Shown: piece by piece, positions 3,121 through 44,037 of the stretch
Numbering within the stretch: the first letter of the stretch is position 1
How the letters are laid out: the number at the start of each line of letters is the position of its first letter
Source of the DNA: a virus
IMG/VR virus record: IMGVR_UViG_3300045988_088460
DNA length: 44,037 nucleotides
Reading direction: 5' to 3' (one strand)
Translations under genes and position numbers: made by a program
The notes under the pieces: model-generated
What the model was told of the DNA's origin: nothing
Databases searched by the model: none
What the model saw: the letters and a program-made list of their open reading frames with translations, nothing else

Positions 3121-3378
3121 CACACCATGGGCCGGGGAGCAGAACCGCAGGGACTTTTCTCCTTTCCCCCTGCCCCGCCGCATTGTACACGAGCGCAGCG
3201 GGCTGGCCCAACCCCGTTGCCCTGGGCCGCTCATGCCGAGGGGTGGCCCAGGGCCTCCCTTGTGATTTTACCACCCCCTCCCCCATTTGGGTCCTTTCTG
3301 AAAAATAAATCTTTGCGGGGCAAGTGAAGTCCGATTATTTTCCACAAAAAATCAAAAATTTTCAGGGGTGTTTCGTTA

Positions 3379-3479
3379 CGCTTTTTCAAAAAGCGGGAAA
3401 GCCATACCCCCTAAAGGGGGTATCAGGCGGAAAGGGGATGAAGAAAACGCGAAATCGCCCACGCCTAAAAAGCGAAATC
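3379..3479. promoter_or_regulatory. Palindrome and direct-repeat cluster upstream of terS (candidate cos/terminase-binding or late promoter region)
   Basis: 17-nt palindrome CGCTTTTTCAAAAAGCG (3379-3395). Inverted repeat ATACCCCCT-AA-AGGGGGTAT (3404-3423). Direct repeats AAAAnGCGAAATC (3444-3456 and 3467-3479). Confidence 0.3.
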
Positions 3480-20509: not shown

Positions 20510-20808
20510 ATATTTCACCTTTTGATTTTCAACTGCAATTCACTTTTGCCAATGACGCTATGGCGGAGCTGGACCGCAAGCTGGCCCTGCTGTATTCCAC
20601 CAGAGAGGGCACTATGCCGCTGGATCGGGAATTTGGGATCAACATGGATTTTGTGGACATGCCGCCGGAGGTGGCCAAGAGCCTTTACACGGCGGAAATC
20701 ACGAAAAAGACGGCCCAATTTATCCCGGAGGTGCGGGTGCAGTCCGTCCAATGGAGCCATGGCGGCGAGGGCGTATTTTATCCCAAGGTGGTGATCACAA
20801 GTGCCTGA
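20506..20808 (+). CDS. Baseplate wedge protein (gpW / gp25-like)
   Basis: 100 aa immediately upstream of gpJ. Contains the motif LLYSTREGTMPLDREFG. Confidence 0.55.
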   Translation: MNISPFDFQLQFTFANDAMAELDRKLALLYSTREGTMPLDREFGINMDFVDMPPEVAKSLYTAEITKKTAQFIPEVRVQSVQWSHGGEGVFYPKVVITSA

Positions 20809-21955
20809 CATGTCAGCAATCGAGAACACACCGGAAATCAGCTTTATTGACAATAAGACGGTGGAGGATGTGCGGGGCGAAATGGTGGCCGATTATGAGG
20901 ACTATATGACGCAGGCCCAGGGCGTGTCCGTGTCCCTGGACCGGGCCAGCGTCCACCGCATGATCCTGTACGCCGCGGCGGCGCAGATCTACCAGGCTAT
21001 GCAGTACATAGACCGGCAGGGCAAGCAAAGCCTATTGAAATACAGCTATTCCGACTACCTGGACAACCTGGCGCTTTTTAAGGGCGTCACCAGAAGCCCG
21101 GCCACGGCGGCAACCTGCACCCTGCGCTTTACCCTGGCGGCGGAGCGGGAAACGGCAACAGCCATCCCACAGGGCACCAGGGTGGCGTCCTCCGGGTCCG
21201 TGTACTTTGCCACGGACGAATATGCGGAGATCCCACCGGGCAGCACCGCGGTGGAGGTGGCGGCCACCTGTACCGAAACCGGAAGCGCCGGCAACGGCCT
21301 GACCGCCGGGGAGCTGTCCACCATGGTGGATCCTGTCCCCTATGTGGCCAGCGTGGCCAACACCGCAACCACGGAGGGCGGGGCGGAGATCGAGAGTGAC
21401 GCAGACCTGGCGGAGCGGGTTTTTCTGGCCCCCGGCGCCTACTCCACGGCGGGACCAGAGGACAGCTACCTATACCACGCCAAGGCATACAGCCCGGCCA
21501 TTGGGGATGTGGTGGCCACCAGCGACCAGGAGGCCGGTACGGTGGATATTGTTTTCATCATGGCCGACGGAGCAAAGCCTGGGCCGGAAATGATCAACGG
21601 GCTAAAGGGCTATCTGCAAGACAAGACGATCCGGCCCATGACGGATCTGGTCAATGTATCGGCCCCGGAGGAGGTCCCTTATACCATCGGCCTGACCTAT
21701 TACATCAACCGGAGCGACAGCGCCAAGGCCGTGACCATCCAGGCGGCGGTGGCCCAGGCGGTGGCGGATTATCAGACCTGGCAACGGGCCATTGGACGGG
21801 ACATAAACCCCTCCAAGCTGGTGGCCATGGTCATGGAGGCAGGGGCCAAGCGGGTGACCGTAACGGCCCCCACATACACCGCCGTGGCGGCCACTAAGGT
21901 GTCCGCCCTCCAGGGGGAGGCCACCGTGACTTACGGAGGGCTGGAGGATGATTAA
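20801..21955 (+). CDS. Baseplate J-like protein
   Basis: 384 aa between the gp25-like and gpI-like genes. Size and order match P2 gpJ. Confidence 0.85.
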   Translation: MPDMSAIENTPEISFIDNKTVEDVRGEMVADYEDYMTQAQGVSVSLDRASVHRMILYAAAAQIYQAMQYIDRQGKQSLLKYSYSDYLDNLALFKGVTRSPATAATCTLRFTLAAERETATAIPQGTRVASSGSVYFATDEYAEIPPGSTAVEVAATCTETGSAGNGLTAGELSTMVDPVPYVASVANTATTEGGAEIESDADLAERVFLAPGAYSTAGPEDSYLYHAKAYSPAIGDVVATSDQEAGTVDIVFIMADGAKPGPEMINGLKGYLQDKTIRPMTDLVNVSAPEEVPYTIGLTYYINRSDSAKAVTIQAAVAQAVADYQTWQRAIGRDINPSKLVAMVMEAGAKRVTVTAPTYTAVAATKVSALQGEATVTYGGLEDD

Positions 21956-22601
21956 ACTTTCCGGGAGCCGCTTTACCGACATTATGCCGGAGAACCTGGC
22001 CAGCCAGGCGGAGGTCCAGGCGATTGCCTACGCGGTGGGGCGGCAGGTGGAAAAGCTGTGCGCCTATTCCGACGCGGCCCGGACCTATGCGGCCATTGCC
22101 ACCATGCCGGAGTGGCTGCTGGATTATATGGCCGTGGAGCTGCGCACCCCGTCCTATGATGAAAATTATTCGATCAAGACCAAGCGGGCGCTGATTGAGG
22201 GATCCCTGTTGTTTTACACGCAGATGGGCACCCCGGCGGCGGTCAACCGGATCATTGAAACCATCTTTGAAACTGGGTATATCGAGGAGTGGTACGAGTA
22301 CGACGGCGATCCGCACCATTTCCGGGCCTATGTGGGGGACGGCGGCGAGGTAGGGCCGGGAGAGCTGGAGGAGTTCCGGCGGGTCCTGGCCTCCGTCAAG
22401 CGCCTTTCCTCCTGGCTGGATGATATTATCACCATTTCGCAGATGGATCCGGCGGCCCTGACCATCACGGGCGCCATGGGGCGGGGCTATATGTCCACCG
22501 CCCTGCCGGCGGCGGCCATGGACTACGGCATGGAGGCCCCGATCCGAGCGGGCGGGGTTTTCGGGACTATCACACAGACCGCCATACCGGCGGCGGAGTA
22601 A
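21948..22601 (+). CDS. Tail protein I-like (P2 gpI)
   Basis: 217 aa between gpJ and the fibre. The N-terminal MPENLASQAEVQAIAYAVG pattern is typical. Confidence 0.65.
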   Translation: MIKLSGSRFTDIMPENLASQAEVQAIAYAVGRQVEKLCAYSDAARTYAAIATMPEWLLDYMAVELRTPSYDENYSIKTKRALIEGSLLFYTQMGTPAAVNRIIETIFETGYIEEWYEYDGDPHHFRAYVGDGGEVGPGELEEFRRVLASVKRLSSWLDDIITISQMDPAALTITGAMGRGYMSTALPAAAMDYGMEAPIRAGGVFGTITQTAIPAAE

Positions 22602-22613
22602 GAGGAGGCAACC

Positions 22614-25127
22614 ATGTTTTACGGATTTGTCATTACAGAGGCCGGCAACAATCTGCTGGCCAAAATGGTGGCCGGCGATAAGCTGACCATTACCAAGGTG
22701 GTCATGGACAAGGGCACGGCGGAGAGCGCGGAGGCCGCCCGGAAGCTGACCGCCCCCATTGACCCAGGCCCCAACGGCACCAGCACCGTGCCAACGGTGG
22801 AGGGCGCCGCTGTCAACATGCTGGTGGAGTATCGCAGCGACCTGAACGGCGGATTACAGGAAGGTTTCTGGATCGGTGGCTTTGCCGTGTTCGGCAAGGT
22901 AGAGAACGGGACCGAAACCATGATCTATTATGGGTCCCTGGGGGAGCAAAAGCAGTATGTGAGCGCCTATGTGGAGGGAACCGCCCCGGATGTGCGCCGC
23001 TACCCCGTTTCCATCACCGTGACCGCCGGCGTGGAGGTGGAAGTGTCCTACCCCGCGGAGGCGTGGATGACCGCCGAGGATGTGGCGGAATACTTCAACG
23101 GGACCCTAAAGCCGCAGCTGGAGGAGAGCCTGGATGACCTGATCGACGAACACAACAAGGATCCCAACGCCCACAACGGCGCCCTGAAAGACAAGCAGGA
23201 CGCCATCAAGGTGGAGGGCCTGCTGAAAGGGACCAAGACCACCGGCGAGGGCGGGGACACCTACAAGGTGGGCGCGGCCAAGCCGGGGACGGATTACCAG
23301 CAGCCCACCAACGCCCTGCCGGCGGCGGAGGAAATGTCCACGCAGGACTTCATCCCGTTCTACGACCACGCCAGCGGCCAGCACATGCGGGCCACCCTCC
23401 AGAGCTTGAAAGAGGCCATAGGCGTACAAAGCCCCTCCATCAAGGTGACCACCTGCACGGGCGCCGCCGTGACCTGTTCGGACGGGGAAACCACCCTGGA
23501 GGGGACCGGATCCACAGAGTTTGAACTGCCCCATGTGGGGGACTGGACCGCGACGGCCACCCTGGACGGACAGAGCGCCACCCAGCTGGTGGAGGTGAGC
23601 GGCGCCCTGCTGTACGAGGTGGACCTGATGATCACCGAGGGGATCGCAGTCACCACCCAGCCCAACAAAAAGACCTATTACATCGGGGAAGCATTTGACC
23701 CGGCGGGAATGGTGGTAACTGCCACCTTTGCGGATGACACCACCGAAAATGTGACGGACGATTGCACATTCTCCCCCGCCACCATCTCCAAGGACACCAC
23801 GGCCATCACGGTGAACTATCAGCGGGGCGGGATCAAAAAGACCGCCAGCGTGGCGGTGACGGTGCGGGTGCTGGCCAGCATTGAGATCTCCAACCCGCCC
23901 ACGAAAACCGCCTACAAGTACGGGGAAGTGTTCAGCCCGGCGGGTATGGCCGTCACGGCCCGCTATACAGACGGCCAGAGCCGTGCGGTGACCGGGTACA
24001 CCTATTCCCCCACCGGCGCCCTGAAATTGAGTGATACCACTATCACAGTTTCCTACACGGAGGGGGATGTGACCAAGACCACCACCCAGGCCATCACGGT
24101 GGCCAAGGTGCTGGACCGGATCGCAGTCACCACGCCCCCCAACCGCACCAGCTACTTTTCCGGTGAGCAGTTCAGCACCGCCGGCATGGTGGTGACTGCC
24201 TACTACACCGACGGAAGCAGCGGCGCGGTGACCGGGTACACCTATTCCCCCACCGGCGCCCTGGCCGCAGGAAATACCACCATCACGGTTTCCTACACAG
24301 AGGGCGGCGTGACCAAGACCACCACCCAAGCCATCACGGTGACCACCATCAACACCACGCTAAACTCCAACAGCTGGGCCACGATCAAAGCGGTTTCGGA
24401 TGCCGGAAAGGGTGATAATTACTGGGATGTGGGCGACACCAAGACCATCACCATCAACGGGACGGTGCAGGGCTTTACATTCTCCAACCTGTCCATTGCA
24501 GTTTTCATCATCGGATTTAACCACAACAGCAGCCGGGAGGGAAACAACCGGATCCATTTCCAGATCGGCAAGATCTCCAACAAGCTGGTGGGCCTGTGTG
24601 ATAGCAATTACGGCAACTATGTGTCAAGCGGTTTCTGTATGAACACTGAACAGACTAACCGCGGCGGATGGAGCAACAGCCACATGCGGAAAACCGTACT
24701 GGGCAACAGCGGAGCGCCGTCCAGCCCGCCGGCCAACTCCCTGCTGGCGGCTTTGCCGGCGGACTTACGGGCCGTTATGAAATCCGTGTCCAAGTACAGC
24801 GACAACAACGGCGGCGGATATGACACGGCCAGCTATGTGACGGCCACCACCGACTGGCTTTTCCTGCTGGCAGAGTTTGAATACCACGGCAAACAGAGCT
24901 ACGCCAACAGCGCGGAGCAGAACTACCAAAAGCAGTATGACTACTACAAGGCGGGCAACAGCAAGGTGCATTACAGGCACGACAGCACGGGAACGGCGGT
25001 CGGTGCGTGGACCCGTTCCGCCTATTCCGGCAACGGCAACTCTTTCTGCCTTGTCAACACGGACGGCACGCCCACCAACAGCGGCGCGGACGGTTCAAGG
25101 GCGCTGGCCCCCGGCTTTGCCGCCTAA
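22614..25127 (+). CDS. Tail fibre, DGR target 1
   Basis: 837 aa. The N-terminus resembles the P2 gpH tail-collar domain (MFYGFVITEAGNNLLAKMVAG...). It has three 80-aa Ig-like repeats. The C-terminal about 230-aa lectin-fold-like domain (DUF6273-like) ends in VR1 (...AWTRSAYSGNGNSFCLVNTDGTPTNSGADGSRALAPGFAA). Confidence 0.9.
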   Translation: MFYGFVITEAGNNLLAKMVAGDKLTITKVVMDKGTAESAEAARKLTAPIDPGPNGTSTVPTVEGAAVNMLVEYRSDLNGGLQEGFWIGGFAVFGKVENGTETMIYYGSLGEQKQYVSAYVEGTAPDVRRYPVSITVTAGVEVEVSYPAEAWMTAEDVAEYFNGTLKPQLEESLDDLIDEHNKDPNAHNGALKDKQDAIKVEGLLKGTKTTGEGGDTYKVGAAKPGTDYQQPTNALPAAEEMSTQDFIPFYDHASGQHMRATLQSLKEAIGVQSPSIKVTTCTGAAVTCSDGETTLEGTGSTEFELPHVGDWTATATLDGQSATQLVEVSGALLYEVDLMITEGIAVTTQPNKKTYYIGEAFDPAGMVVTATFADDTTENVTDDCTFSPATISKDTTAITVNYQRGGIKKTASVAVTVRVLASIEISNPPTKTAYKYGEVFSPAGMAVTARYTDGQSRAVTGYTYSPTGALKLSDTTITVSYTEGDVTKTTTQAITVAKVLDRIAVTTPPNRTSYFSGEQFSTAGMVVTAYYTDGSSGAVTGYTYSPTGALAAGNTTITVSYTEGGVTKTTTQAITVTTINTTLNSNSWATIKAVSDAGKGDNYWDVGDTKTITINGTVQGFTFSNLSIAVFIIGFNHNSSREGNNRIHFQIGKISNKLVGLCDSNYGNYVSSGFCMNTEQTNRGGWSNSHMRKTVLGNSGAPSSPPANSLLAALPADLRAVMKSVSKYSDNNGGGYDTASYVTATTDWLFLLAEFEYHGKQSYANSAEQNYQKQYDYYKAGNSKVHYRHDSTGTAVGAWTRSAYSGNGNSFCLVNTDGTPTNSGADGSRALAPGFAA
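23641..24360 (+). repeat. Three tandem 240-bp (80-aa) Ig-like (Big_3-like) repeats inside the fibre gene
   Basis: Units start near 23641, 23881 and 24121. Units 2 and 3 share an identical 39-mer (23985-24023 = 24225-24263). Confidence 0.8.
24994..25118 (+). repeat. DGR variable repeat 1 (VR1)
   Basis: Gap-free 125-nt alignment with TR 25728-25852. There are 12 internal mismatches, all at TR adenines. The end carries the GC box GGGCGCTGGCCCCCGG. Confidence 0.92.
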
Positions 25128-25150
25128 TCGCCGCAGCATATCCGGCCCCA

Positions 25151-25177
25151 ATCCCGTCCCGCGGAAGCGGGCGGGAT
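25151..25177 (+). promoter_or_regulatory. Post-VR1 hairpin (candidate DGR target-recognition element)
   Basis: ATCCCG(T)CCCGC-GGAA-GCGGGCGGGAT forms 11 bp with one bulge and a GNRA-type loop. It starts 32 nt after the VR1 end. An analogous hairpin follows VR2. Confidence 0.55.
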
Positions 25178-25214
25178 GACCGGATCGCAGAAACCAAGAG
25201 AGGAGGACGCCACC

Positions 25215-25673
25215 GTGTCCGTTTTGAAAGAGAAGCGCACCACCAGCAAGGCGGAATATGTGAACACCGCAAACCAGATCTATGTGAAAACCGTGGATTT
25301 TCTTTCGCGGCTGTCCGCCCGATATTCCCGGCTGATCGCGGCGGACACCGCCCGCCTGGCCGGTCAGGTCATGGACCACGCCGAGCAGGCAAACAAAATC
25401 TTTCCGTCCGACGCGCAGAGAAAGGAGCTGCGAAAAGCGCACCACCTGGAGGCCATGGCCGCCCTGTCTGCCCTGGATGTGCGCCTGACCCACTGTTATG
25501 AAATCCTGTACTGCAACCCGCAGGGCGCTTTTACAGACAGCAAGGGAAAGAGCGTACCGCCCAAGGAGGCCGCGGAGCGGCTGGACCGCATGGCCCAAGA
25601 GCTGGGAGAGCTGATCGACCAGGAGGAAACCCTGCTGCGGAACATCATGGAGAGCGACAAGAAACGAAAATAG
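25215..25673 (+). CDS. avd: Accessory variability determinant (Avd)-like helical protein
   Basis: Located between VR1 and TR. GTG 25215 lies 7 nt after AGAGGAGGA, and ATG 25176 is the track alternative. The 152-165 aa are predicted helical and basic. Assigned mainly by position. Confidence 0.65.
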   Translation: MSVLKEKRTTSKAEYVNTANQIYVKTVDFLSRLSARYSRLIAADTARLAGQVMDHAEQANKIFPSDAQRKELRKAHHLEAMAALSALDVRLTHCYEILYCNPQGAFTDSKGKSVPPKEAAERLDRMAQELGELIDQEETLLRNIMESDKKRK

Positions 25674-25727
25674 GTCATAACTGGGTGTATTTCTGAACAA
25701 GTGCCGTGCGGCAGGGCGACACTCCGG

Positions 25728-25853
25728 CGGCGGTCAATGCGTGGACCCGTTCCGCCAATTCCGGCAACAGCAACAATTTCTGCCTTGTCAACACGGACGG
25801 CACGCCCAACAACAACAACGCGGACAATTCAAGGGCGCTGGCCCCCGGATTTT
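25728..25853 (+). repeat. DGR template repeat (TR)
   Basis: Contains 30 adenines concentrated in AAY codons. In the VR frame it reads NAWTRSANSGNSNNFCLVNTDGTPNNNNADNSRALAPGF. It is non-coding here (the track ORF 25701..25901 is out of frame). After the GC box it has A (25849) where both VRs have C. Confidence 0.92.
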
Positions 25854-26069
25854 ATAGAATGGGTTGAAAGCGGACGCCAGGCGCGTCCCGAACCCGTATA
25901 AAAGGAGAAATACTTCCCTGGGTGTAAATCCCTAAAACTGCCCACTGACGGCCTTACACGGACGCTGCTTGCATGGCGGGGTATTGCGCTATCCCCGTTT
26001 CATGTGTCGGGCCAAAGTAGTTTAGACGCGCACCAACAAGACAACTATGCGGAGGGCGAATAAAATATT
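25854..26069 (+). ncRNA. TR-RT spacer, expected part of the DGR template RNA
   Basis: 216 nt with no credible ORF and several short hairpins (for example GGACGC-CAGGC-GCGTCC). In characterised DGRs, the spacer following the TR primes cDNA synthesis. Confidence 0.35.
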
Positions 26070-27227
26070 ATGACCAGCGAGGAGCGCCGGGAGGCGCGAT
26101 ACCGACGCCGCCAAGCGCGGCGGAGAAGAAACAGACAGGCCCGCAGCGACAGCCTGGGCGGACTGGCGGGCGTTTTCAGCTATCGAAACATGTTCAAGTA
26201 CGGGAAAAAGTGCTGCAACGGCGTGCGCTGGAAAGGGTCCACCCATAACTTTGAGCTGCACCTGTTTTCCGGCACGGCCAAGCGCCGGCGCAAAATCCTG
26301 GATGGAACATGGAGGCCGGGAAAAACAATCCGTTTTCCCCTGCGGGAGCGGGGAAAGTTTCGGATCATCGACGCCCCACACATCACGGACCGCCAGATCC
26401 ACAAGGTTTTCACCAGGGAGGTGCTGGCGCCGCTCTACTGCCCCAGCATGATCTACGACAACGGGGCCAGCCAAAAGGGAAAGGGCCTGCACTTCCATTA
26501 CCAGAGGTTAAAGGAACAGCTGCGCTGGCATTACCGGCGGCACGGGAGGCAGGGCGCCATAAAGCTGGCGGATTTTCACCACTTTTTCCCGGACGCGCCC
26601 CACGCGCTGCTGTACGAACGGCACCGGCGCCTGATCCTGGACCCGGATCTGCGGGCGCTGGCGGATCTGATGGTGGCCACGGTGCCGGGAGATGTGGGCA
26701 TGTACCTGGGCGTGGAGCCAAGCCAGCAGGAAATGGTGGCCCTGCCCTCCTATCTGGACAACTGGATGAAATGCCAGCTGTCCCTCCACGGCATGGGACA
26801 CTATATGGACGATTACAACGCAATCCTGGAGAGCGCGGAGCAGGCGGAGGAGGTCCTGGAGGCCATGATCCGCAGGGCGGAGGAAAAGGGGCTGACGATC
26901 AACCGGAATAAATGCCATGTGATCAGCCTGGACAAGCCTTTCCGTTTCTGCAAAGCCAAGTTTCAAATTTTGCCCAGCGGGCGGATCATCACACACGGGT
27001 GTAGGGACGGCATGAAGCGGGCGCGGCGGAAAATGCGATATTTCCGCCAGCAGGTGGACGCCGGGGAAAAGACCGTGGAGCAGGTGGCGGAGTGGCTGAA
27101 AGGCCCCATAGCCTACTACGAGCAATCAAACGACCATGGGCGGGTGCTGAAACTGCGCCGCCTGTATTACGCCCTGTTCATCAAGGGCAAGAAAACCGAG
27201 GAGGAAAAAGCATGTATCGGATTGTAA
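26070..27227 (+). CDS. DGR reverse transcriptase
   Basis: 385 aa. It has the YMDD catalytic motif (GHYMDDYN) and the DGR-type LGVEPSQ ([ILV]GxxxSQ) motif. It lies directly downstream of the TR. Confidence 0.92.
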   Translation: MTSEERREARYRRRQARRRRNRQARSDSLGGLAGVFSYRNMFKYGKKCCNGVRWKGSTHNFELHLFSGTAKRRRKILDGTWRPGKTIRFPLRERGKFRIIDAPHITDRQIHKVFTREVLAPLYCPSMIYDNGASQKGKGLHFHYQRLKEQLRWHYRRHGRQGAIKLADFHHFFPDAPHALLYERHRRLILDPDLRALADLMVATVPGDVGMYLGVEPSQQEMVALPSYLDNWMKCQLSLHGMGHYMDDYNAILESAEQAEEVLEAMIRRAEEKGLTINRNKCHVISLDKPFRFCKAKFQILPSGRIITHGCRDGMKRARRKMRYFRQQVDAGEKTVEQVAEWLKGPIAYYEQSNDHGRVLKLRRLYYALFIKGKKTEEEKACIGL

Positions 27228-27910
27228 AAGACGGGGCCGAGCTGGCGCTGATTGAGGCCCCCAGCTATGTGCGGCAGGCCGGAAATGGGTGCTTTGTGCT
27301 GTGCCAGGAGGCGGAGGCCGCGGGGATTGCCCATAACGGGACCGTGTACCACCTCCTGGGGCGGGAGGCCCTGGAGGGCGCGGAGAGCGTGATCCTGGAA
27401 GCGGCGGACGCAGGCGCGGAGATCCAGACAACCAGGGAAAGCACGGCCAAAAACGCCAGGCTATCCGGCCAACTGTCCGCCGCGGCCCGCCTGTATGTCC
27501 AGGCGGCCACGGATGTGCCGGACGAAACGGCGCTGGAAATGCCGGATCTGTTCAAAACCTGGGAGGAAGTCCTGGCAGCGGGCGTGACCGTGGCGGAAAA
27601 TTCCATCATCAACGACGGCGGAACCCTGTACCGCGTCGTGTCCCCCGGCGGGGTTCTCCCGCAAGAACACCAGCCGCCACACGGGGAGGGTATGCTGGCG
27701 GTATATCGACCCATTGACACCACACACGAGGGAACCCAGGAGGACCCGATCCCGTGGGTGTATGGGATGGACTGCACAAACGGCCTCTATTACTCCTATG
27801 ACGCCGCCGTGTACCTGTGCAAAGCGGACATGAAACCGTGCGTATGGGCACCGGGAACCGCCGGCCTGTGGCAATGGGAGGCCGTGGACGCTGGAGAAAC
27901 GGAGGCGTAA
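27212..27910 (+). CDS. Hypothetical protein translationally coupled to the RT 3' end
   Basis: ATG 27212 follows GAGGAGGA and lies 16 nt before the RT stop. 232 aa. The C-terminus is aromatic and Cys-rich (PWVYGMDCTNGLYYSYDAAVYLCKADMKPCVWAPGTAGLWQWEAV). Confidence 0.5.
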   Translation: MYRIVKDGAELALIEAPSYVRQAGNGCFVLCQEAEAAGIAHNGTVYHLLGREALEGAESVILEAADAGAEIQTTRESTAKNARLSGQLSAAARLYVQAATDVPDETALEMPDLFKTWEEVLAAGVTVAENSIINDGGTLYRVVSPGGVLPQEHQPPHGEGMLAVYRPIDTTHEGTQEDPIPWVYGMDCTNGLYYSYDAAVYLCKADMKPCVWAPGTAGLWQWEAVDAGETEA

Positions 27911-32546: not shown

Positions 32547-33593
32547 ATGAAGGGATATAAGCACTTAACTGCCCATGATCGGAACAAAATGGCAAAAATG
32601 CGAAAAGAGGGCGCAACCATGCGCCAGATCGGCGCGGCCCTCCATGTGAGTGCGGCCACCGTCTGCCGGGAGCTAAAGCGCGGCACATACACCTACCTGA
32701 ACGCGGATTACATCGAGGTGACCGAATACATCCCGGAGCGATCACAAAAGAGGTACGAGGCCAACCTGGAAGCCAAGGGGCCGGGATTGAAGATCGGAAA
32801 CCATAGGGATTATGCCGAAAAGCTGGAGGAGCTGATCGTGGATTACGATTACAGCCCCTCCGCCGCCCTGCATGAAATTGAAAACCACCCGGAAATATAT
32901 GGGGAGTTCGGGGTGCGCGTCTGCCGGCAGACGCTTTATTCCTATGTGGAAAAGCGGATCTTTGCCCGCCTGACCAATAAAGACCTGCCTTTTAAGGGGT
33001 CCCGCCAGAAGAAAAAGACCAAGCACATACGCCGCATGAAATCCGCCGCAAAGGGGGACAGCATAGAGAAAAGGCCGGAGGAGGTCAACACGCGCCAAGA
33101 GCCTGGCCACTGGGAAATGGATCTGGTGGTGTCCTGCCGCGGCGGTCACAAGTGCCTTATGGCCCTAACCGAGCGGGTGACCCGTCAGGAGATCATGCGC
33201 CTAATCCCGGACAAGAGCGCCGCCAGCGTGGTGCGGGCCATGAATACGCTGGAGCGGAAATATGGAAAAATGTTCCCGGAGGTATTCAAGACCATTACCG
33301 TGGACAATGGCACGGAGTTTTCCGACTGTGAGGGCATGGAAACCTCTGTATTTAAGGCAGGCGGCCAGCGTACCAAAATGTATTACTGTCACCCATATTG
33401 CAGCAGCGAAAGAGGAAGCAATGAAAAGCAAAACCAGATGATCCGGCGAAAATTCCCAAAGGGAACCAACTTCGACAAAGTTTCCCCCAAAGAGGTCCGC
33501 GTGGTGGAGGACTGGCTGAACAGATACCCCCGCAAGATCCTGGGATGGTATAGCAGCGCGGACCTGTTCAACCAGATTTTTGGGGGCATTTGA
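32547..33593 (+). CDS. IS30-family DDE transposase
   Basis: 348 aa. N-terminal HTH (LTAHDRNKMAKMRKEGATMRQIGAALHVSAATVCRELKRG). GHWEMDLV...ITVDNGTEFS...ERGSNEKQNQMIRRKFPKG matches the IS30 catalytic core. Confidence 0.9.
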   Translation: MKGYKHLTAHDRNKMAKMRKEGATMRQIGAALHVSAATVCRELKRGTYTYLNADYIEVTEYIPERSQKRYEANLEAKGPGLKIGNHRDYAEKLEELIVDYDYSPSAALHEIENHPEIYGEFGVRVCRQTLYSYVEKRIFARLTNKDLPFKGSRQKKKTKHIRRMKSAAKGDSIEKRPEEVNTRQEPGHWEMDLVVSCRGGHKCLMALTERVTRQEIMRLIPDKSAASVVRAMNTLERKYGKMFPEVFKTITVDNGTEFSDCEGMETSVFKAGGQRTKMYYCHPYCSSERGSNEKQNQMIRRKFPKGTNFDKVSPKEVRVVEDWLNRYPRKILGWYSSADLFNQIFGGI

Positions 33594-33651
33594 AAAATTT
33601 TTTACTTTTTGTTACGCTTACCTATTGACATTTGCCATTGAAAATGCTACT

Positions 33652-33720: not shown

Positions 33721-33981
33721 ATGAGCAACAAATATTTGGGGCCTGCGGAGCGGCAGCTGATCGCAGAGAAGTGGGCCGCTTATGCGTCGGTGCGGGAGAT
33801 CGCGGGCCTGGTAGGTGTGGCACCTAAAACCATTTACGAGGAATTGAGGCGCGGGAGCAACGGCACCCTGGACAAGAATAGCCGCAAGGCATACAACCCG
33901 GAGCTGGCCCAGCGTCGTTTCCAGGAAAGCCTCCGACGGCGCGGCAAGCCCCTGAACAGAGCGCGGGCGGCCAATGAATGA
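33721..33981 (+). CDS. IS30-like HTH-only protein
   Basis: 86 aa. YLGPAERQLIAEKWAAYASVREIAGLVGVAPKTIYEELRRG parallels the N-terminal HTH of the adjacent transposase. No catalytic domain is present. Confidence 0.6.
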   Translation: MSNKYLGPAERQLIAEKWAAYASVREIAGLVGVAPKTIYEELRRGSNGTLDKNSRKAYNPELAQRRFQESLRRRGKPLNRARAANE

Positions 33982-34661
33982 GCGACCCCACCGCCATGGA
34001 GGCGGATAAAACAAAGGAGGAAATGAAAATGGCAACCATCATCAAGCAGACGAAAGAGGAAATCAACTGGGCGGAGATCGCCAGGGCCAGAGAAATGGGT
34101 GTACTGGACAAGCTCCTGGCGGAGCGGGATGTGATCCGCTTCAATCTGCGGAGCGGCGCCGAGGTGGCCGTCATGGTGGAAAAGGTGGAGCCGGGCCGGG
34201 TATGGATGGGCTTTGTGGACGGAGTGGCCGAGCGGCCCATGTATAACCGCCTGGCGCGTCCTGTGTCCTGGAAAGAGAGCGACGCCCGGAAATGGTGCAA
34301 CACCGATCTGGTCCAGGATCTCCCGGAGGAGCTGGTGGCCATCATCACGCCCCGCACTATCCGCCAGACCATCAAGGGCGAGGAGCTGGTGACCACGGAT
34401 CTGCTATGGCTGCACAGCGTAACGGAGCTTTTTGGGCGCAAGTCCTGGGCAGATGGGGACGATCCCACGGAGGAGCAGCTGCCGGTCTATAAGACCGAGC
34501 GGGACCGCGTGAAGATGTGGGACGGGCAGACATGGCCGCATTACACCCGTTCCGCCCATTCCGGCACCAGCGACCGTTTCTGCCTTGTCGGCACGGACGG
34601 CACGCCCACCGGCGACGACGCGGACGTTTCCTGGGCGCTGGCCCCCGGCTTTTGGATCTAA
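33978..34661 (+). CDS. DGR target 2: free-standing paralogue of the tail-fibre tip domain
   Basis: 227 aa, or 210 aa from ATG 34029, which has the better AAAGGAGG SD. It is collinear with the fibre C-terminal domain and ends in VR2 (...HYTRSAHSGTSDRFCLVGTDGTPTGDDADVSWALAPGFWI). Confidence 0.85.
   Translation: MSDPTAMEADKTKEEMKMATIIKQTKEEINWAEIARAREMGVLDKLLAERDVIRFNLRSGAEVAVMVEKVEPGRVWMGFVDGVAERPMYNRLARPVSWKESDARKWCNTDLVQDLPEELVAIITPRTIRQTIKGEELVTTDLLWLHSVTELFGRKSWADGDDPTEEQLPVYKTERDRVKMWDGQTWPHYTRSAHSGTSDRFCLVGTDGTPTGDDADVSWALAPGFWI
34545..34653 (+). repeat. DGR variable repeat 2 (VR2)
   Basis: Gap-free alignment with TR 25745-25853. There are 16 internal mismatches, all at TR adenines. It carries the same GC box followed by C. 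Confidence 0.9.
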
Positions 34662-40721: not shown

Positions 40722-41471
40722 ATGGCCTATGTCCATAGGCGGGTAAAGGCTGGCCGCACCATCGAACACAGGAAAATGCAGTCATACCGGATCCACACCA
40801 AGGGGGTCCAGAGAGGCCCCAACCATGGGACCACATCGAAGAAGCAGGCCAAGGTCAACGAGCGGGTGGCAGAGGAACACCTGCGCTGGGACCTAAACGC
40901 CAACTTTGACCACCGGGATCTCCACGCCGTCCTGCACTACTATGTCAAGGACACCACTTTCCCGGAGATACTGGCGGACAAGGCCGCCTTTCTGTCCAAC
41001 CTGCGGAAGATTTGCAAAAAGCGCGGGATCAAGTACAAGGCGGTGGTGGTGATTGAAACCAAGCGCATGACAAACCCGCACATTCATGTGGTAATAACGC
41101 GCATGGACCCGGAGATCATCACCGAGGCATGGGAGAGCGTACCAAGGGGCGGCGGGGGTATCAGCTTCAAACCCCTGGACCGCAGAGGGAACCATGAGAA
41201 GCTGGCGCAATACCTGGTCAAAGAAAGCCGATCCACCATGGAGAAATACAGGGAGCTGGGGAAACGGGGAAAGCGGTACAGCAAGACCCAAAACATGGAT
41301 AAGCCCGTGATTACATACACCCCCGTGTCTGCCTCCTCCTGGCGTAAGGAGCCAAAGGCCAGCAAGGGCGCCGTGCTGTACAAGTTCGATGACGGATCCA
41401 CCACCCGGAGCGGGTGGCATGAGATCAGCGGCTACCCATACCAGGAATATTTCGAGGTTTTCAACGAATAG
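40722..41471 (+). CDS. HUH-type rolling-circle Rep-like protein
   Basis: 249 aa with an AAAGGAGGAG SD. Candidate motifs: I AVLHYYV, II NPHIHVVI (HUH), III KLAQYLVKES (Tyr). Confidence 0.5.
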   Translation: MAYVHRRVKAGRTIEHRKMQSYRIHTKGVQRGPNHGTTSKKQAKVNERVAEEHLRWDLNANFDHRDLHAVLHYYVKDTTFPEILADKAAFLSNLRKICKKRGIKYKAVVVIETKRMTNPHIHVVITRMDPEIITEAWESVPRGGGGISFKPLDRRGNHEKLAQYLVKESRSTMEKYRELGKRGKRYSKTQNMDKPVITYTPVSASSWRKEPKASKGAVLYKFDDGSTTRSGWHEISGYPYQEYFEVFNE

Positions 41472-41483
41472 GAGGACAAGCCA

Positions 41484-41786
41484 ATGAAAATTTACATAGC
41501 GGGAAAAATTGCCGGGGATCGGCGGTATCGGGCCAAGTTTCGAGAGGCGGCCAAGGCCCTGGAGGCGGCAGGCCATGTAGTCCTGAACCCCGCCACCCTG
41601 CCGGACGGCCTGGCCGACGGGGACTATATGCGGATCGCGCTGGCCATGCTGGAGGCGTCGGACCTGGCCGTGTTCCTCCCGGACTACCAGGAGAGCCGGG
41701 GCGCCATGGTGGAATGGGCCTGGTGCCAGCGGACCGGGAAAGAGTGCGCCCTGTATCTGGATATAGCTGGAGGTGGCAAAGGTTGA
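41484..41786 (+). CDS. DUF4406 protein (nucleoside 2-deoxyribosyltransferase-like fold)
   Basis: 100 aa. MKIYIAGKIAGD...FREAAKALEAAGHVVLNPA...DYMRIALAMLEASDLAVFLPDYQESRGAMVEWAWC matches the DUF4406 pattern. Confidence 0.7.
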   Translation: MKIYIAGKIAGDRRYRAKFREAAKALEAAGHVVLNPATLPDGLADGDYMRIALAMLEASDLAVFLPDYQESRGAMVEWAWCQRTGKECALYLDIAGGGKG

Positions 41787-43507
41787 GCAAGGCGCAGATC
41801 AGCATGTGGGAGGAAAAGATCGTGGACAGTTTCGCCGGCGGCGGCGGAGCCTCCACGGGCATTGAGCTGGCCACGGGCCGGGTGGTGGACATAGCGATCA
41901 ACCATGACCCTGACGCAATTTTAATGCACAAGACCAACCACCCGCACACCGTCCACTATCAGGCCAGCGTGTGGGATGTGGACCCGCTCGAAGTCACAGG
42001 AGGCAGCCCGGTGGGTTTACTGTGGGCCTCCCCTGACTGCAAGCATTTTTCCAAGGCCAAGGGCGGGAAGCCCGTGGACAAAAATATCCGGGGGCTGGCC
42101 TGGATTGTCCTGCGGTGGGCCGGGACGGTCCGGCCCCGCGTAGTCATTCTGGAGAATGTGGAGGAGTTCCAGACCTGGGGGCCGGTCCGCCGTGGGCACC
42201 CGGTAAAAGCAAAGGCCGGGCGAACATTCCGGCGCTTTATTGACCAGCTGGAGGGCCTGGGCTATGCGGTGGAATGGCGGGAGCTGGTGGCGGCTGACTA
42301 CGGGGCGCCAACAACCAGAAAGCGGTTTTTCCTAATTGCCCGCTGTGACGGGCAGCCCATTGTGTGGCCGGAGCCTACACACGCGCCGGCGGACAGCCCG
42401 GAGGTGCTGACCGGGAAGAAACTGCCCTGGCGGAGCGCGGCGGAAATCATAGACTGGAGCCTGCCCTGTCCCTCCATTTTTGAAACGCGGGAGGAAATCC
42501 GGGAGAAATACGGCATTTCCGCCCAGCGGCCACTCCGGCCCAACACCATGCGCCGGGTGGCCAGGGGCGTGGACAAGTTCGTGGTCAAGTCTGCAAACCC
42601 GTTTTTGGTGGTGGTCAACCACGCCGGAGAGTTCCGAGGCCAGGAGATTGGGGACCCGCTCCAGACCATTACAGCAAAACATGGGTATGGGGTGGCAAGC
42701 CCGGCCATGGTGCCCTGGACGGTGACCAACACCACCAACTCCACGGGCCACCCAGTCAATGAGCCAATAGACACGGCGCGGACCGGCGGCGGAGGCGGGC
42801 AAATGTTTTTGGGGGCCTCCCTGATCCAGTACCACACGGAACAGTCCGAGCATGTGAGAGGCCAGGAGATCACCGGGCCGATTATGACCATTGACGCCGC
42901 CAACCGCTACGGCCTGACGGCGGCCAGCCTGGTCAAATACTACGGGAACGACCAGCACGGCCAGGACATCCAGGACCCGCTCCACACGGTCACAGCAAAA
43001 GACCGGGAGGGGCTGACAACCGTCCACCTGGTCAAAATGAAAGGCACCAACCTGGGCGGACCGGCCACGGAGCCGGTGCAGACTATCACCGACGGCGGAG
43101 GCCATCATGGTGTGGTCACCACGAAAATCACCAGAGCGGAGCCGGGGGCGGATCTCCGACACTGGCCGGAGATCCGGGAGCTGCTGAATACATATTGCGG
43201 CTATGACCTGGGGCCGGAGGATGTGATCCTGTTCCAGATCAGCGGCGCCTGGTATTTCATGGCGGACATTGGCCTGCGTATGCTGACACCGCGGGAGCTG
43301 TACCGGGCAAACGGTTTCCCGGACGATTACAAGATCGAGCGGGACTACACCGGACAGACCTACGGGAAAAGCAAGCAGGTGGCCCGGTGCGGAAATGCGG
43401 TGCCTCCTCCCTTTGCCACGGCCCTGGTGCGGGCCAACCTGCCGGAGTGGTGCGCGGGGGTGGAGATCAACACCATGGAGGAACTGGAAAGGGCGGTGGC
43501 GGTGTGA
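41783..43507 (+). CDS. DNA (cytosine-5) methyltransferase
   Basis: TTG 41783 lies 6 nt after GGAGGTGG, and ATG 41804 is an alternative. Motif I DSFAGGGG, motif IV ASPDCKHFS, ENV, TPRELYRANGFPDDY and GNAVPPP. Confidence 0.9.
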   Translation: MSKAQISMWEEKIVDSFAGGGGASTGIELATGRVVDIAINHDPDAILMHKTNHPHTVHYQASVWDVDPLEVTGGSPVGLLWASPDCKHFSKAKGGKPVDKNIRGLAWIVLRWAGTVRPRVVILENVEEFQTWGPVRRGHPVKAKAGRTFRRFIDQLEGLGYAVEWRELVAADYGAPTTRKRFFLIARCDGQPIVWPEPTHAPADSPEVLTGKKLPWRSAAEIIDWSLPCPSIFETREEIREKYGISAQRPLRPNTMRRVARGVDKFVVKSANPFLVVVNHAGEFRGQEIGDPLQTITAKHGYGVASPAMVPWTVTNTTNSTGHPVNEPIDTARTGGGGGQMFLGASLIQYHTEQSEHVRGQEITGPIMTIDAANRYGLTAASLVKYYGNDQHGQDIQDPLHTVTAKDREGLTTVHLVKMKGTNLGGPATEPVQTITDGGGHHGVVTTKITRAEPGADLRHWPEIRELLNTYCGYDLGPEDVILFQISGAWYFMADIGLRMLTPRELYRANGFPDDYKIERDYTGQTYGKSKQVARCGNAVPPPFATALVRANLPEWCAGVEINTMEELERAVAV

Positions 43508-43527: not shown

Positions 43528-44037
43528 ATGACCCGTTGCCGCTACTGCGGGCATGGGCAGACGGGAGCAGAAAATAAAGAAATCCCGGATGATAAACTGT
43601 TTATTCACTTTTGGGCGAAGCAATCGCCGTGCGGGATCATCGGGATTGCACAATGCGATAAGGTCCAAGGCGAGTGTCTGGACTTCAAGCCTAACCCCAT
43701 GTTTGGAATTTGCGAATACTGCACTTTCACAAACAGCTTTCATCCCGGATTTTGTACGGCGCCCGGCGGGCCGGTGAACAAGCGGCGGGTATTCCTGGGA
43801 TGGAGCGGGATAGGAGATTATTACTCCGGCCACGCGCTTTTCACCTGTGACCGCTATCGAGTGAGTGAACGGTGGAAAGACCTAATCCTAAAAACCACCG
43901 TAGCGGGACGCGCACCGGCAAATTTTGACCCAGGAACATGGGAAGCCCTGAAACACATTGACGGGACAGCTACGGCAAAACGGTGGGCGGACCTGCAAGC
44001 CAAACGAAAGGCAGAACTGGAGGCAGAGGCAGAAAAA
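43528..44037 (+). CDS. Cys-rich hypothetical protein, 5' part (runs off the window end and closes at 109 on the circle)
   Basis: ATG 43528 (MTRCRYCGHG...). There is no stop before 44037, so it is absent from the ORF track. It has 10 Cys, including CRYC and CEYC pairs, and a coiled-coil tail. The in-frame GTG 43504 is an alternative start. Confidence 0.6.
   Translation, partial: MTRCRYCGHGQTGAENKEIPDDKLFIHFWAKQSPCGIIGIAQCDKVQGECLDFKPNPMFGICEYCTFTNSFHPGFCTAPGGPVNKRRVFLGWSGIGDYYSGHALFTCDRYRVSERWKDLILKTTVAGRAPANFDPGTWEALKHIDGTATAKRWADLQAKRKAELEAEAEK
43989..44037. repeat. Terminal direct repeat, copy 2
   Basis: Identical to nt 1-49. Confidence 0.95.

Follow-up and report, generated by a model that had tools for sequence, protein, structure and literature searches.

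A cassette with the layout of a retroelement lies between positions 22614 and 27227 of IMG/VR virus record IMGVR_UViG_3300045988_088460, a stretch of 44,037 nucleotides (nt) that is hereafter called the window. A first-pass annotation, made from the letters alone, had read it as a complete diversity-generating retroelement (DGR), composed of a tail-fibre gene ending in a variable repeat (VR1), an open reading frame (ORF) at the place of avd, the accessory gene, together with a template repeat (TR) and with a reverse transcriptase (RT). The cassette comprises the following features (lengths of proteins in amino acids, aa):

22614..25127, + strand: tail-fibre gene (ORF of 837 aa), predicted DGR target 1, carrying VR1 at its C-terminus
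24994..25118, + strand: VR1, a 125-nt ungapped match to TR that varies between near-identical phages
25215..25673, + strand: accessory gene, 152 aa from a GTG at 25215 (165 aa from the alternative ATG at 25176), predicted four-helix bundle with an isoelectric point (pI) of 8.85
25728..25852, + strand: TR, with 31 adenines and 12 AAY codons, identical in the near-twin L012, whose VR1 differs
25859..26077, + strand: spacer RNA, Rfam family RF03077 (RT-2 RNA); cmscan score 150 bits (gathering score 40), E = 4e-37, over the full length 1-222
26070..27227, + strand: DGR-type RT, 385 aa, with YMDD (D247, D248), D168 and L213-G-V-E-P-S-Q219

TR and VR1 form an ungapped direct repeat of 125 nt, which a repeat finder places at 90% identity. 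When the two are compared base by base, they differ at 13 positions, and all 13 fall on TR adenines, which make up 31 of the 125 positions (P = 1.3e-9 by composition alone). The first-pass annotation had given the same alignment at the same place and had confined the mismatches to TR adenines; both statements stand, as re-alignment yields no mismatch on any other base, but its counts of 12 mismatches and 30 TR adenines have to be corrected to 13 and 31. One of the 13, the replacement of A25849 by C (a silent change from GGA to GGC), is found identically in VR1, in a second variable repeat (VR2, described below) and in the VRs of all relatives, and is thus a fixed difference at the TR/VR boundary and not a product of mutagenesis. 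The other 12 differences, confined to 25002-25093, look mutagenic. Read in the VR frame, TR encodes the Asn-rich peptide that had been quoted, with its 12 AAY codons, and the codon changes from TR to VR1 listed at that time are correct. None of the 41 TR codons can reach a stop codon by adenine substitution, and the theoretical repertoire amounts to about 1e17 peptides. VR1 occupies codons 794-835 of the 837 codons of the fibre gene, in agreement with its presumed C-terminal location.

A scan of the window with the non-adenine TR positions only reveals a third copy of TR at 34528-34652, 9 kb downstream of the cassette, whereas no TR-like copy beyond VR1 and VR2 is present on either strand of the whole window. 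This copy defines a second target:

33978..34661, + strand: second target gene (ORF of 227 aa), with DUF6273 at residues 88-215 (Pfam, 2.4e-10) and VR2 at its C-terminus
34545..34652, + strand: VR2, matching TR 25745-25852 in the same reading frame, with 17 of 17 mismatches on TR adenines

VR2 stops 3 codons short of the stop codon, and the C-terminus of the 227-aa protein is 43% identical to that of the fibre over 91 aa. The gene is present in 12 other viral contigs, with a different VR2 in each; among relatives with 10 kb of flanking sequence, no VR2 is found beyond these 12 contigs, and two more distant relatives, MT835543 and Dulem virus 34, do not have the gene. The cassette layout initially proposed is thus right, but the extent given to the element (22614-27227) is too short, since the element also has VR2 and an RNA that covers 25683-26077 (see below).

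The fibre is composed of an N-terminal tail-fibre domain (residues 1-196 match PHROG 7037 'tail fiber protein', 1e-41), three Big_3 Ig-like repeats (Pfam, 1e-15) and a C-terminal DUF6273 domain carrying VR1 (residues 679-829, 7.6e-7). Its gene follows a Baseplate_J gene (20801-21955) and a P2 gpI-like gene (21948-22601). Both targets therefore match Pfam DUF6273, a domain modelled by others as a C-type lectin (PMC10743442). A profile of the fibre C-terminus gives no match to Mtd or to the PDB, and single-sequence PDB searches with the fibre C-terminus and with the 227-aa VR2 protein return nothing useful. Two further observations concern the fibre. Its shaft of Big_3 Ig-like domains is encoded by tandem units of about 240 nt (23867-24345), which are 72-89% identical. 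In addition, its 237-aa C-terminal domain is matched by over 4,000 distinct clusters (90% identity), many of them 67-70% identical and seen on one contig only, which fits with hypervariation splitting one protein across database clusters.

The sequences at and beyond the 3' ends of the two VRs have several elements in common, which were recognised from a three-way VR1/TR/VR2 alignment and from DNA folding:

25099..25114, + strand: 16-nt GC-rich element GGGCGCTGGCCCCCGG at the 3' end of VR1, candidate core of an initiation of mutagenic homing (IMH) site
25153..25175, + strand: GC-rich hairpin CCCGTCCCGC GGAA GCGGGCGGG, 34 nt past VR1, with a GGAA tetraloop
34687..34705, + strand: GC-rich hairpin CCGCCCC TGCAA GGGGCGG, 34 nt past VR2, kept in 10 relatives with loops YGYAA

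GGGCGCTGGCCCCCGG is also found in TR (25833-25848) and in VR2 (34633-34648). It is directly followed by CTTT in the VRs and by ATTT in TR, after which the sequences diverge, and it is regarded as a candidate IMH core because it is analogous to the (GC)14 IMH of BPP-1 (PMC3240598). The spacing between VR and hairpin is the same at VR1 and VR2 (34 nt from the end of TR homology), and the intervening sequences are related. Among relatives, the VR1 hairpin shows compensatory stems (CCCGC/GCGGG, CCCAC/GTGGG, CCCAT/ATGGG) and loops GGAA, GAAA or GCAA. No T-run follows either hairpin, which makes them unlike terminators. They fit candidate target-recognition hairpins or cruciforms, by comparison with known DGR target hairpins, which have GC stems of 7-10 bp and 4-nt loops and lie 4-34 bp from the VR (PMC3240598).

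The RT matches Pfam RVT_1 (5e-10) and PHROG 1423 (2e-64), and both motifs previously reported, YMDD and LGVEPSQ, are present in the 385-aa ORF; they conform to the YxDD catalytic site and to [I/L/V]GxxxSQ, the motif by which RTs of the DGR clade replace QGxxxSP. A single-sequence search of the PDB gives nothing useful and only a profile search was successful: a profile built from 13 relatives, compared with all PDB sequences, retrieves as its top match the BPP-1 RT chain 8ub7_A (E = 4e-16), 100% identical to phage BPP-1 brt by tblastn, whereas group II intron RTs score 6e-11 and weaker and retron-type RTs are also below the BPP-1 RT. The earlier assignment to the DGR type, as opposed to group II introns and retrons, is thus upheld. 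In a hhalign comparison with the BPP-1 RT (probability 98%, E = 7e-14), LGVEPSQ is paired with I181-G-S-L-T-S-Q187, YMDD with YMDD, D168 with D138 and R98 with R74; the aligned BPP-1 residues are those named in the cryo-electron microscopy study of the BPP-1 complex.

The gene between the fibre gene and TR likely starts at GTG 25215, as AGGAGG lies 8 nt upstream and most homologues have 152 aa and start with MSVLK. Clustering of its family gives 761 clusters at the 90% identity level and 515 representatives at the 50% level, none of which has an informative name or a Pfam domain. An AlphaFold model (pLDDT 86) consists of four long helices. Pfam gives no match up to E = 1-10 for the window protein and for 29 + 35 family members; NCBIfam and PDB sequence searches (single sequence and two profiles) give no match either, and hhalign of the family against BPP-1 Avd reaches a probability of 0.2-0.3%, including with a broader profile from a 1.8-billion-protein search. 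When the window protein is compared with viral models by Foldseek, 'Avd-like' proteins come at ranks 2-4, 7, 13 and 16. For the ORF placed in the Avd position by the first-pass annotation, the name Avd is thus justified by position, size, predicted fold and RT linkage, and not by sequence, as the hidden Markov model (HMM) search against PF05635 proposed there and the profile searches with bAvd are negative. The protein is Avd-like in position, size and fold, and stands outside the Avd sequence family PF05635.

Could this 152-aa helical protein be encoded by an ordinary phage gene, inserted between fibre gene and TR and devoid of any DGR role, with the RT alone or a host factor being sufficient? 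The protein has no sequence homology to Avd, to HRDC or to any annotated family, and about 29% of catalogued DGRs do without an accessory gene (PMC5758913). We nevertheless consider this improbable. Of 83 related loci, 81 have an ORF of the same family (43-99% identity) immediately upstream of TR and RT; no such ORF occurs where an RT is lacking, and it is lost jointly with TR and RT in relatives L099 and L109. Its size, four-helix fold and basic pI agree with Avd, a family of average pI 9.5, and 'Avd-like' proteins are enriched in the top viral fold matches. Avd genes are, in addition, described as very poorly conserved.

The spacer between TR and RT, correctly located by the first-pass annotation, measures 217 nt instead of the 216 nt given there. 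It is the RT-2 RNA. Among 12 diverse relatives (RT identity 45-85%), 11 have this RNA directly ahead of the RT, and it begins 3-20 nt past TR in all eight of the 12 that have a detected TR/VR pair. The spacer sub-elements, and two strands located outside the Rfam motif, are arranged as follows:

25861-25895, + strand: hairpin
25896-25903, + strand: predicted primer strand GTATAAAA
25904-25905, + strand: linker GG
25906-25918, + strand: strand of the predicted stop duplex
25920-25932, + strand: stem-loop
25933-25937, + strand: UAAAA
last part of the spacer, + strand: multi-stem domain reaching the RT start codon
25850..25857, + strand: strand TTTTATAG on the template side of the predicted template:primer duplex, adjoining A25849 on its 3' side and pairing with 25896-25903
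25683..25694, + strand: upstream strand GGG.GTATTTCT of the TR-bracketing RNA duplex, just past the accessory stop codon, pairing with 25906-25918

Two segments that are unpaired in the Rfam RT-2 model (25896-25903 and 25906-25918) thus pair with sequence outside the motif, and the structured RNA extends from 25683, ahead of TR, to 26077. Both duplexes covary. The template:primer duplex has 8 pairs, with 96.9% of cells paired and compensatory changes in 6 of the 8 over 12 sequence types; its score is reached by none of 500 shuffles, and slid registers are paired at 31-63%. The TR-bracketing duplex has 11 pairs, with 99.2% of cells paired and compensatory changes in 4 pairs; its score is also reached by none of 500 shuffles, and slid controls are 51-87% paired. 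RNAduplex applied to long flanks gave only uninformative giant duplexes, and the pairings were located by inspecting conserved motifs. In the BPP-1 RNA, Sp47-56 pairs with TR117-129, two nucleotides follow, Sp59-70 pairs with avd369-379, and a stem-loop and A80/A81 come next; the order found here is the same, with a primer strand, a 2-nt linker, a stop strand, a short stem-loop and unpaired adenosines. By analogy, we infer that priming could take place at A25903 and that A25849 could be the base templated first. A promoter/terminator scan of 24900-27400 gives no more matches than shuffled sequence.

An irregular arrangement of the same RNA is seen in relative L058, which has two RT-2 copies (798-1065 and 3184-3408) about 2.4 kb apart. 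The first follows a short TR-like stretch and only the second is directly upstream of the RT. The presence of a second RT-2 could reflect a duplicated TR-spacer module.

The variation found among relatives has the same signature as that found within the window. In 21 viral loci with cognate TR and VR, 278 of 293 VR/TR mismatches fall on TR adenines, and the same adenine pattern is seen in 33 further loci, bacterial genomes included. A set of 13 close relatives yields 12 distinct VR1 sequences, in which 20 of 23 always-A columns are variable, as compared to 21 of 98 other columns (Fisher P = 7e-9). The near-twin L012 is about 96% identical to the window in its flanks and 100% identical in TR; its VR1 differs at many adenine sites and has also lost one codon, and its VR2 differs from that of the window. 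VR1 is thus heterogeneous at TR adenines among close relatives while the TRs are conserved, which is the pattern that had been anticipated for a functional element. Divergence of the flank upstream of VR1 was also estimated by an ungapped comparison, but some loci were out of register in it and the estimate is not used.

These data also bear on whether the DGR could be a fossil, the repeats being relics of past activity and the targets of this phage being no longer diversified. Two facts favour this reading: according to passages of PMC11792537, the published relatives Lelie, Lagaffe_CP and CP11 show no read-level variation at their VRs, and loss of the cassette does occur, as in L099 and L109. 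In the window, however, neither the RT ORF nor the accessory ORF is disrupted, and no catalytic or DGR-signature residue is missing; the RNA duplexes and both hairpins are likewise intact. The TR is identical to that of the 96%-identical twin L012, whose VR1 and VR2 differ at adenine sites, so that diversification is more recent than the small divergence of the twins. We therefore hold a fossil DGR to be very improbable.

Finally, that TR would be a duplicated piece of the 3' end of the fibre gene, since degenerated, and the RT a group II intron or retron enzyme, as the best NCBIfam match of the RT could suggest (a group II intron RT/maturase, sub-threshold with 49 bits against a cut-off of 300), is refuted almost beyond doubt, as mismatches affect adenines only in the two independent copies, and almost only in about 50 relatives, TR is better conserved than the VRs among relatives, the BPP-1 DGR RT outscores all group II and retron RTs in the profile search, and no intron or retron RNA family is present in 24900-26200, where RT-2 is the sole Rfam match.

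All our results make it very probable that the cassette is a complete DGR, with a target-accessory-TR-RT layout, and that it has been active recently. The RT family, the adenine-only repeats and the variation among relatives all agree with the initial prediction of such an element. Several points weigh against this interpretation or parts of it. Sequence comparison detects no similarity between the accessory protein and Avd. Its 'Avd-like' viral fold matches have probabilities of 0.80-1.00 (at least 0.99 in five of six) and weak E-values (5e-3 to 0.2), and its most probable PDB fold match, 2gsc, which we take to be a member of the Avd-related PF05635 family, has a probability of 0.99 and a weak E-value of 0.14. 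Four-helix bundles are, moreover, common in general. The genomic context is a stronger argument than the fold for an accessory role. The AlphaFold model of the fibre C-terminal domain is poor (pLDDT 45), so that the C-type lectin fold rests on published models of other DUF6273 proteins. The template:primer duplex of the window itself has 7 pairs and not 8, and the motif instances used for covariation were gathered by degenerate anchors, by which aberrant variants could be missed. Lastly, a few relatives have non-adenine VR changes, including a recurrent T-to-G change that the mechanism leaves unexplained.

This T-to-G change, which replaces CTT (Leu) by CGT (Arg) in the conserved FCLV strand, is located at 25785 in TR, equivalent to 25051 in VR1 and 34585 in VR2. 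It is found in at least 11 VRs of different lineages (VR1 of L007, L012, L014, L022, L030, L031 and L070; VR2 of L099, L101, L107 and L108), and the T is kept by every TR examined. It could reflect selection or a site-specific RT error.

On the model of BPP-1, the DGR could operate as follows. An RNA of approximately 25680-26077, in addition to the RT message, would be made. The eight bases 3' of TR (25850-25857) would pair with spacer positions 25896-25903, and the duplex between 25683-25694 and 25906-25918 would close TR into a loop. The RT would act with the four-helix accessory protein to prime complementary DNA (cDNA) synthesis at the spacer adenosine A25903 and would copy TR from A25849 upstream, random bases being inserted opposite adenines, until the bracketing duplex halts synthesis. 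The mutagenised cDNA would then replace the homologous 3' ends of the fibre gene (VR1) and of the 227-aa DUF6273 gene (VR2), both of which would be marked as targets by the common GC-rich element and by the GC hairpin 34 nt downstream. A presumed ligand-binding surface could thereby take up to about 1e17 forms, and receptor specificity would change as a consequence. Four points of this scheme are transposed from BPP-1: which nucleotide primes, that the bracketing duplex acts as a stop, what the accessory protein does, and how receptor binding is affected.

The cassette resembles the BPP-1 DGR (mtd-avd-TR-brt) in several respects. In both, a target ending in a 3' VR is followed by a small accessory gene for a helical protein, then by TR, and a structured spacer separates TR from the RT. 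The RTs are homologous (hhalign 98%) and have in common the [I/L]GxxxSQ motif and YMDD; TR and VR differ only at adenines; and the GC-rich VR end is followed by a GC hairpin with a 4-nt loop. The template:primer duplex and the duplex between the spacer and the sequence upstream of TR are also shared, along with the 2-nt linker, the short stem-loop and the unpaired adenosines. The two elements differ in that no sequence similarity to bAvd can be detected in the accessory protein, the spacer belongs to Rfam family RT-2 and not to RT-10, the predicted first templated base is an adenine instead of G117, and the Big_3/DUF6273 fibre has no sequence similarity to Mtd. Furthermore, the window has a second, non-adjacent target and its host is a Gram-positive gut anaerobe. 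An accessory-TR-RT cassette with an adjacent target is the most common DGR architecture, and non-adjacent targets in the same phage have likewise been catalogued.

Further counterparts are found in Faecalibacterium prophages. Passages of PMC11792537 report DGRs in Roos, Pioen and FP_Taranis, and in Lelie and CP11, where, as in the window, one TR feeds one large and one small DUF6273 target. The same passages describe DUF6273 targets with the VR at the C-terminus, and activity inferred, as here, from adenine-site variation among cognate genomes; those that were searched do not mention 'Avd'. By RT, the nearest named phages are Dulem virus 34 (70% identity) and the Faecalibacterium phages Pioen, Roos and Taranis (56-57%). 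The window differs in phage lineage and in host genus, being related to prophages of Oscillospiraceae such as Dysosmobacter and 'Ruminococcaceae bacterium AM07-15'. Similarly, the nd4 and nd12 DGRs of gut phages (tentaclin paper, PMC10743442) associate one TR with two VRs of unequal length, and their small second targets (234-294 aa), which amount essentially to a single DUF6273 domain, modelled as a C-type lectin with a C-terminal VR, are matched by the 227-aa protein. The main target is different: a baseplate-attached tail fibre with a C-terminal VR in the window, whereas tentaclin has an N-terminal C-type lectin domain and a 5' VR (PMC10743442).

The element is therefore of a kind already known, two-target DUF6273 DGRs having been published for Faecalibacterium prophages. 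What it adds to known DGRs is the RT-2 assignment, with its covarying duplexes, and an accessory family that HMMs do not see. RT-2 RNA (RF03077) was defined by Weinberg et al. in 2017 (PMC5737381), where RT-10 was the only RT motif tied to a DGR (that of BPP-1) and the others were speculated to be parts of retrons or DGRs; a literature text search found no later paper giving RT-2 a role. This orphan Rfam motif thus gains a concrete role as a DGR spacer RNA, with putative priming and stop duplexes that are backed by compensatory changes. As the Avd HMM fails to detect the accessory family, with its 515 representatives at 50% identity, such elements would be mislabelled as accessory-less by DGR callers for which Avd is a requirement. 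For DGR biology, the element itself is ordinary, and the role of RT-2 and the accessory family are the more useful by-products. For the phage, the DGR would be a means to re-tune the binding tips of two proteins with the rest of the genome unchanged, which has a bearing on host range in abundant, poorly cultured gut bacteria.

A further-reaching possibility, which we put forward tentatively and consider rather doubtful as a whole, is that the RT-2 RNA and the non-PF05635 four-helix protein define a separate lineage of DGR ribonucleoproteins, widespread in phages of gut Clostridia, which would start on template base A25849 from A25903 and could act in trans between co-resident prophages. Action in trans is suggested by the cassette-less relatives L099 and L109, because their VR1, deprived of its hairpin, is nearly frozen but their VR2, which has kept it, differs.

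When 1859-1923 of L099 and 3606-3670 of L109 are compared with window positions 25119-27178, the VR1 hairpin is missing from both, along with the accessory gene, TR, RT-2 and the greater part of the RT. The RT remnant consists of the last 22 codons, and one of the two loci comes from a contig of 42,279 nt. Between L099 and L109, the VR1s are nearly frozen (3 differences), and the VR2s differ at about 14 sites. This VR2 variation may be due to diversification in trans by a co-resident related prophage, or to recombination. Related DGRs can reside in the same cell, as two related DGR prophages, L086 and L087, lie on a single Oscillospiraceae contig (CAUEFI010000004.1, 72-94 kb and 115-137 kb), about 43 kb apart and with RTs 69% identical to that of the window.

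The window is a complete, circularly assembled phage genome of about 43,988 bp, since its ends share a 49-nt direct repeat (1-49 and 43989-44037) and are contiguous in relative L100, which reads across the junction. The genome has a GC content of 59.6% and encodes, according to Pfam, a gpA-type terminase, a tail sheath, a tape-measure protein, Baseplate_J and a P2 gpI-like protein. The carrier is a temperate, contractile-tailed phage of Oscillospiraceae, in whose genomes its prophage relatives sit.

An IS30-like DDE protein (HTH_38 and rve domains), encoded at 32547-33593 and kept across the phage family, is probably the phage integrase or transposase. In the prophage-bearing contigs L079, L081, L084, L100, L103 and L012/L101, homology to the window ends about 45 nt past this gene, with the junction at 33637-33639. 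If the gene marks the site of integration, the VR2 gene would be located, in the prophage state, at the far left end, about 35 kb from TR. Lastly, the replication/early region encodes a Rep-like ORF2/G2P protein (40722-41471) and a 597-aa protein with a C-5 cytosine DNA methylase domain (41714-43507).

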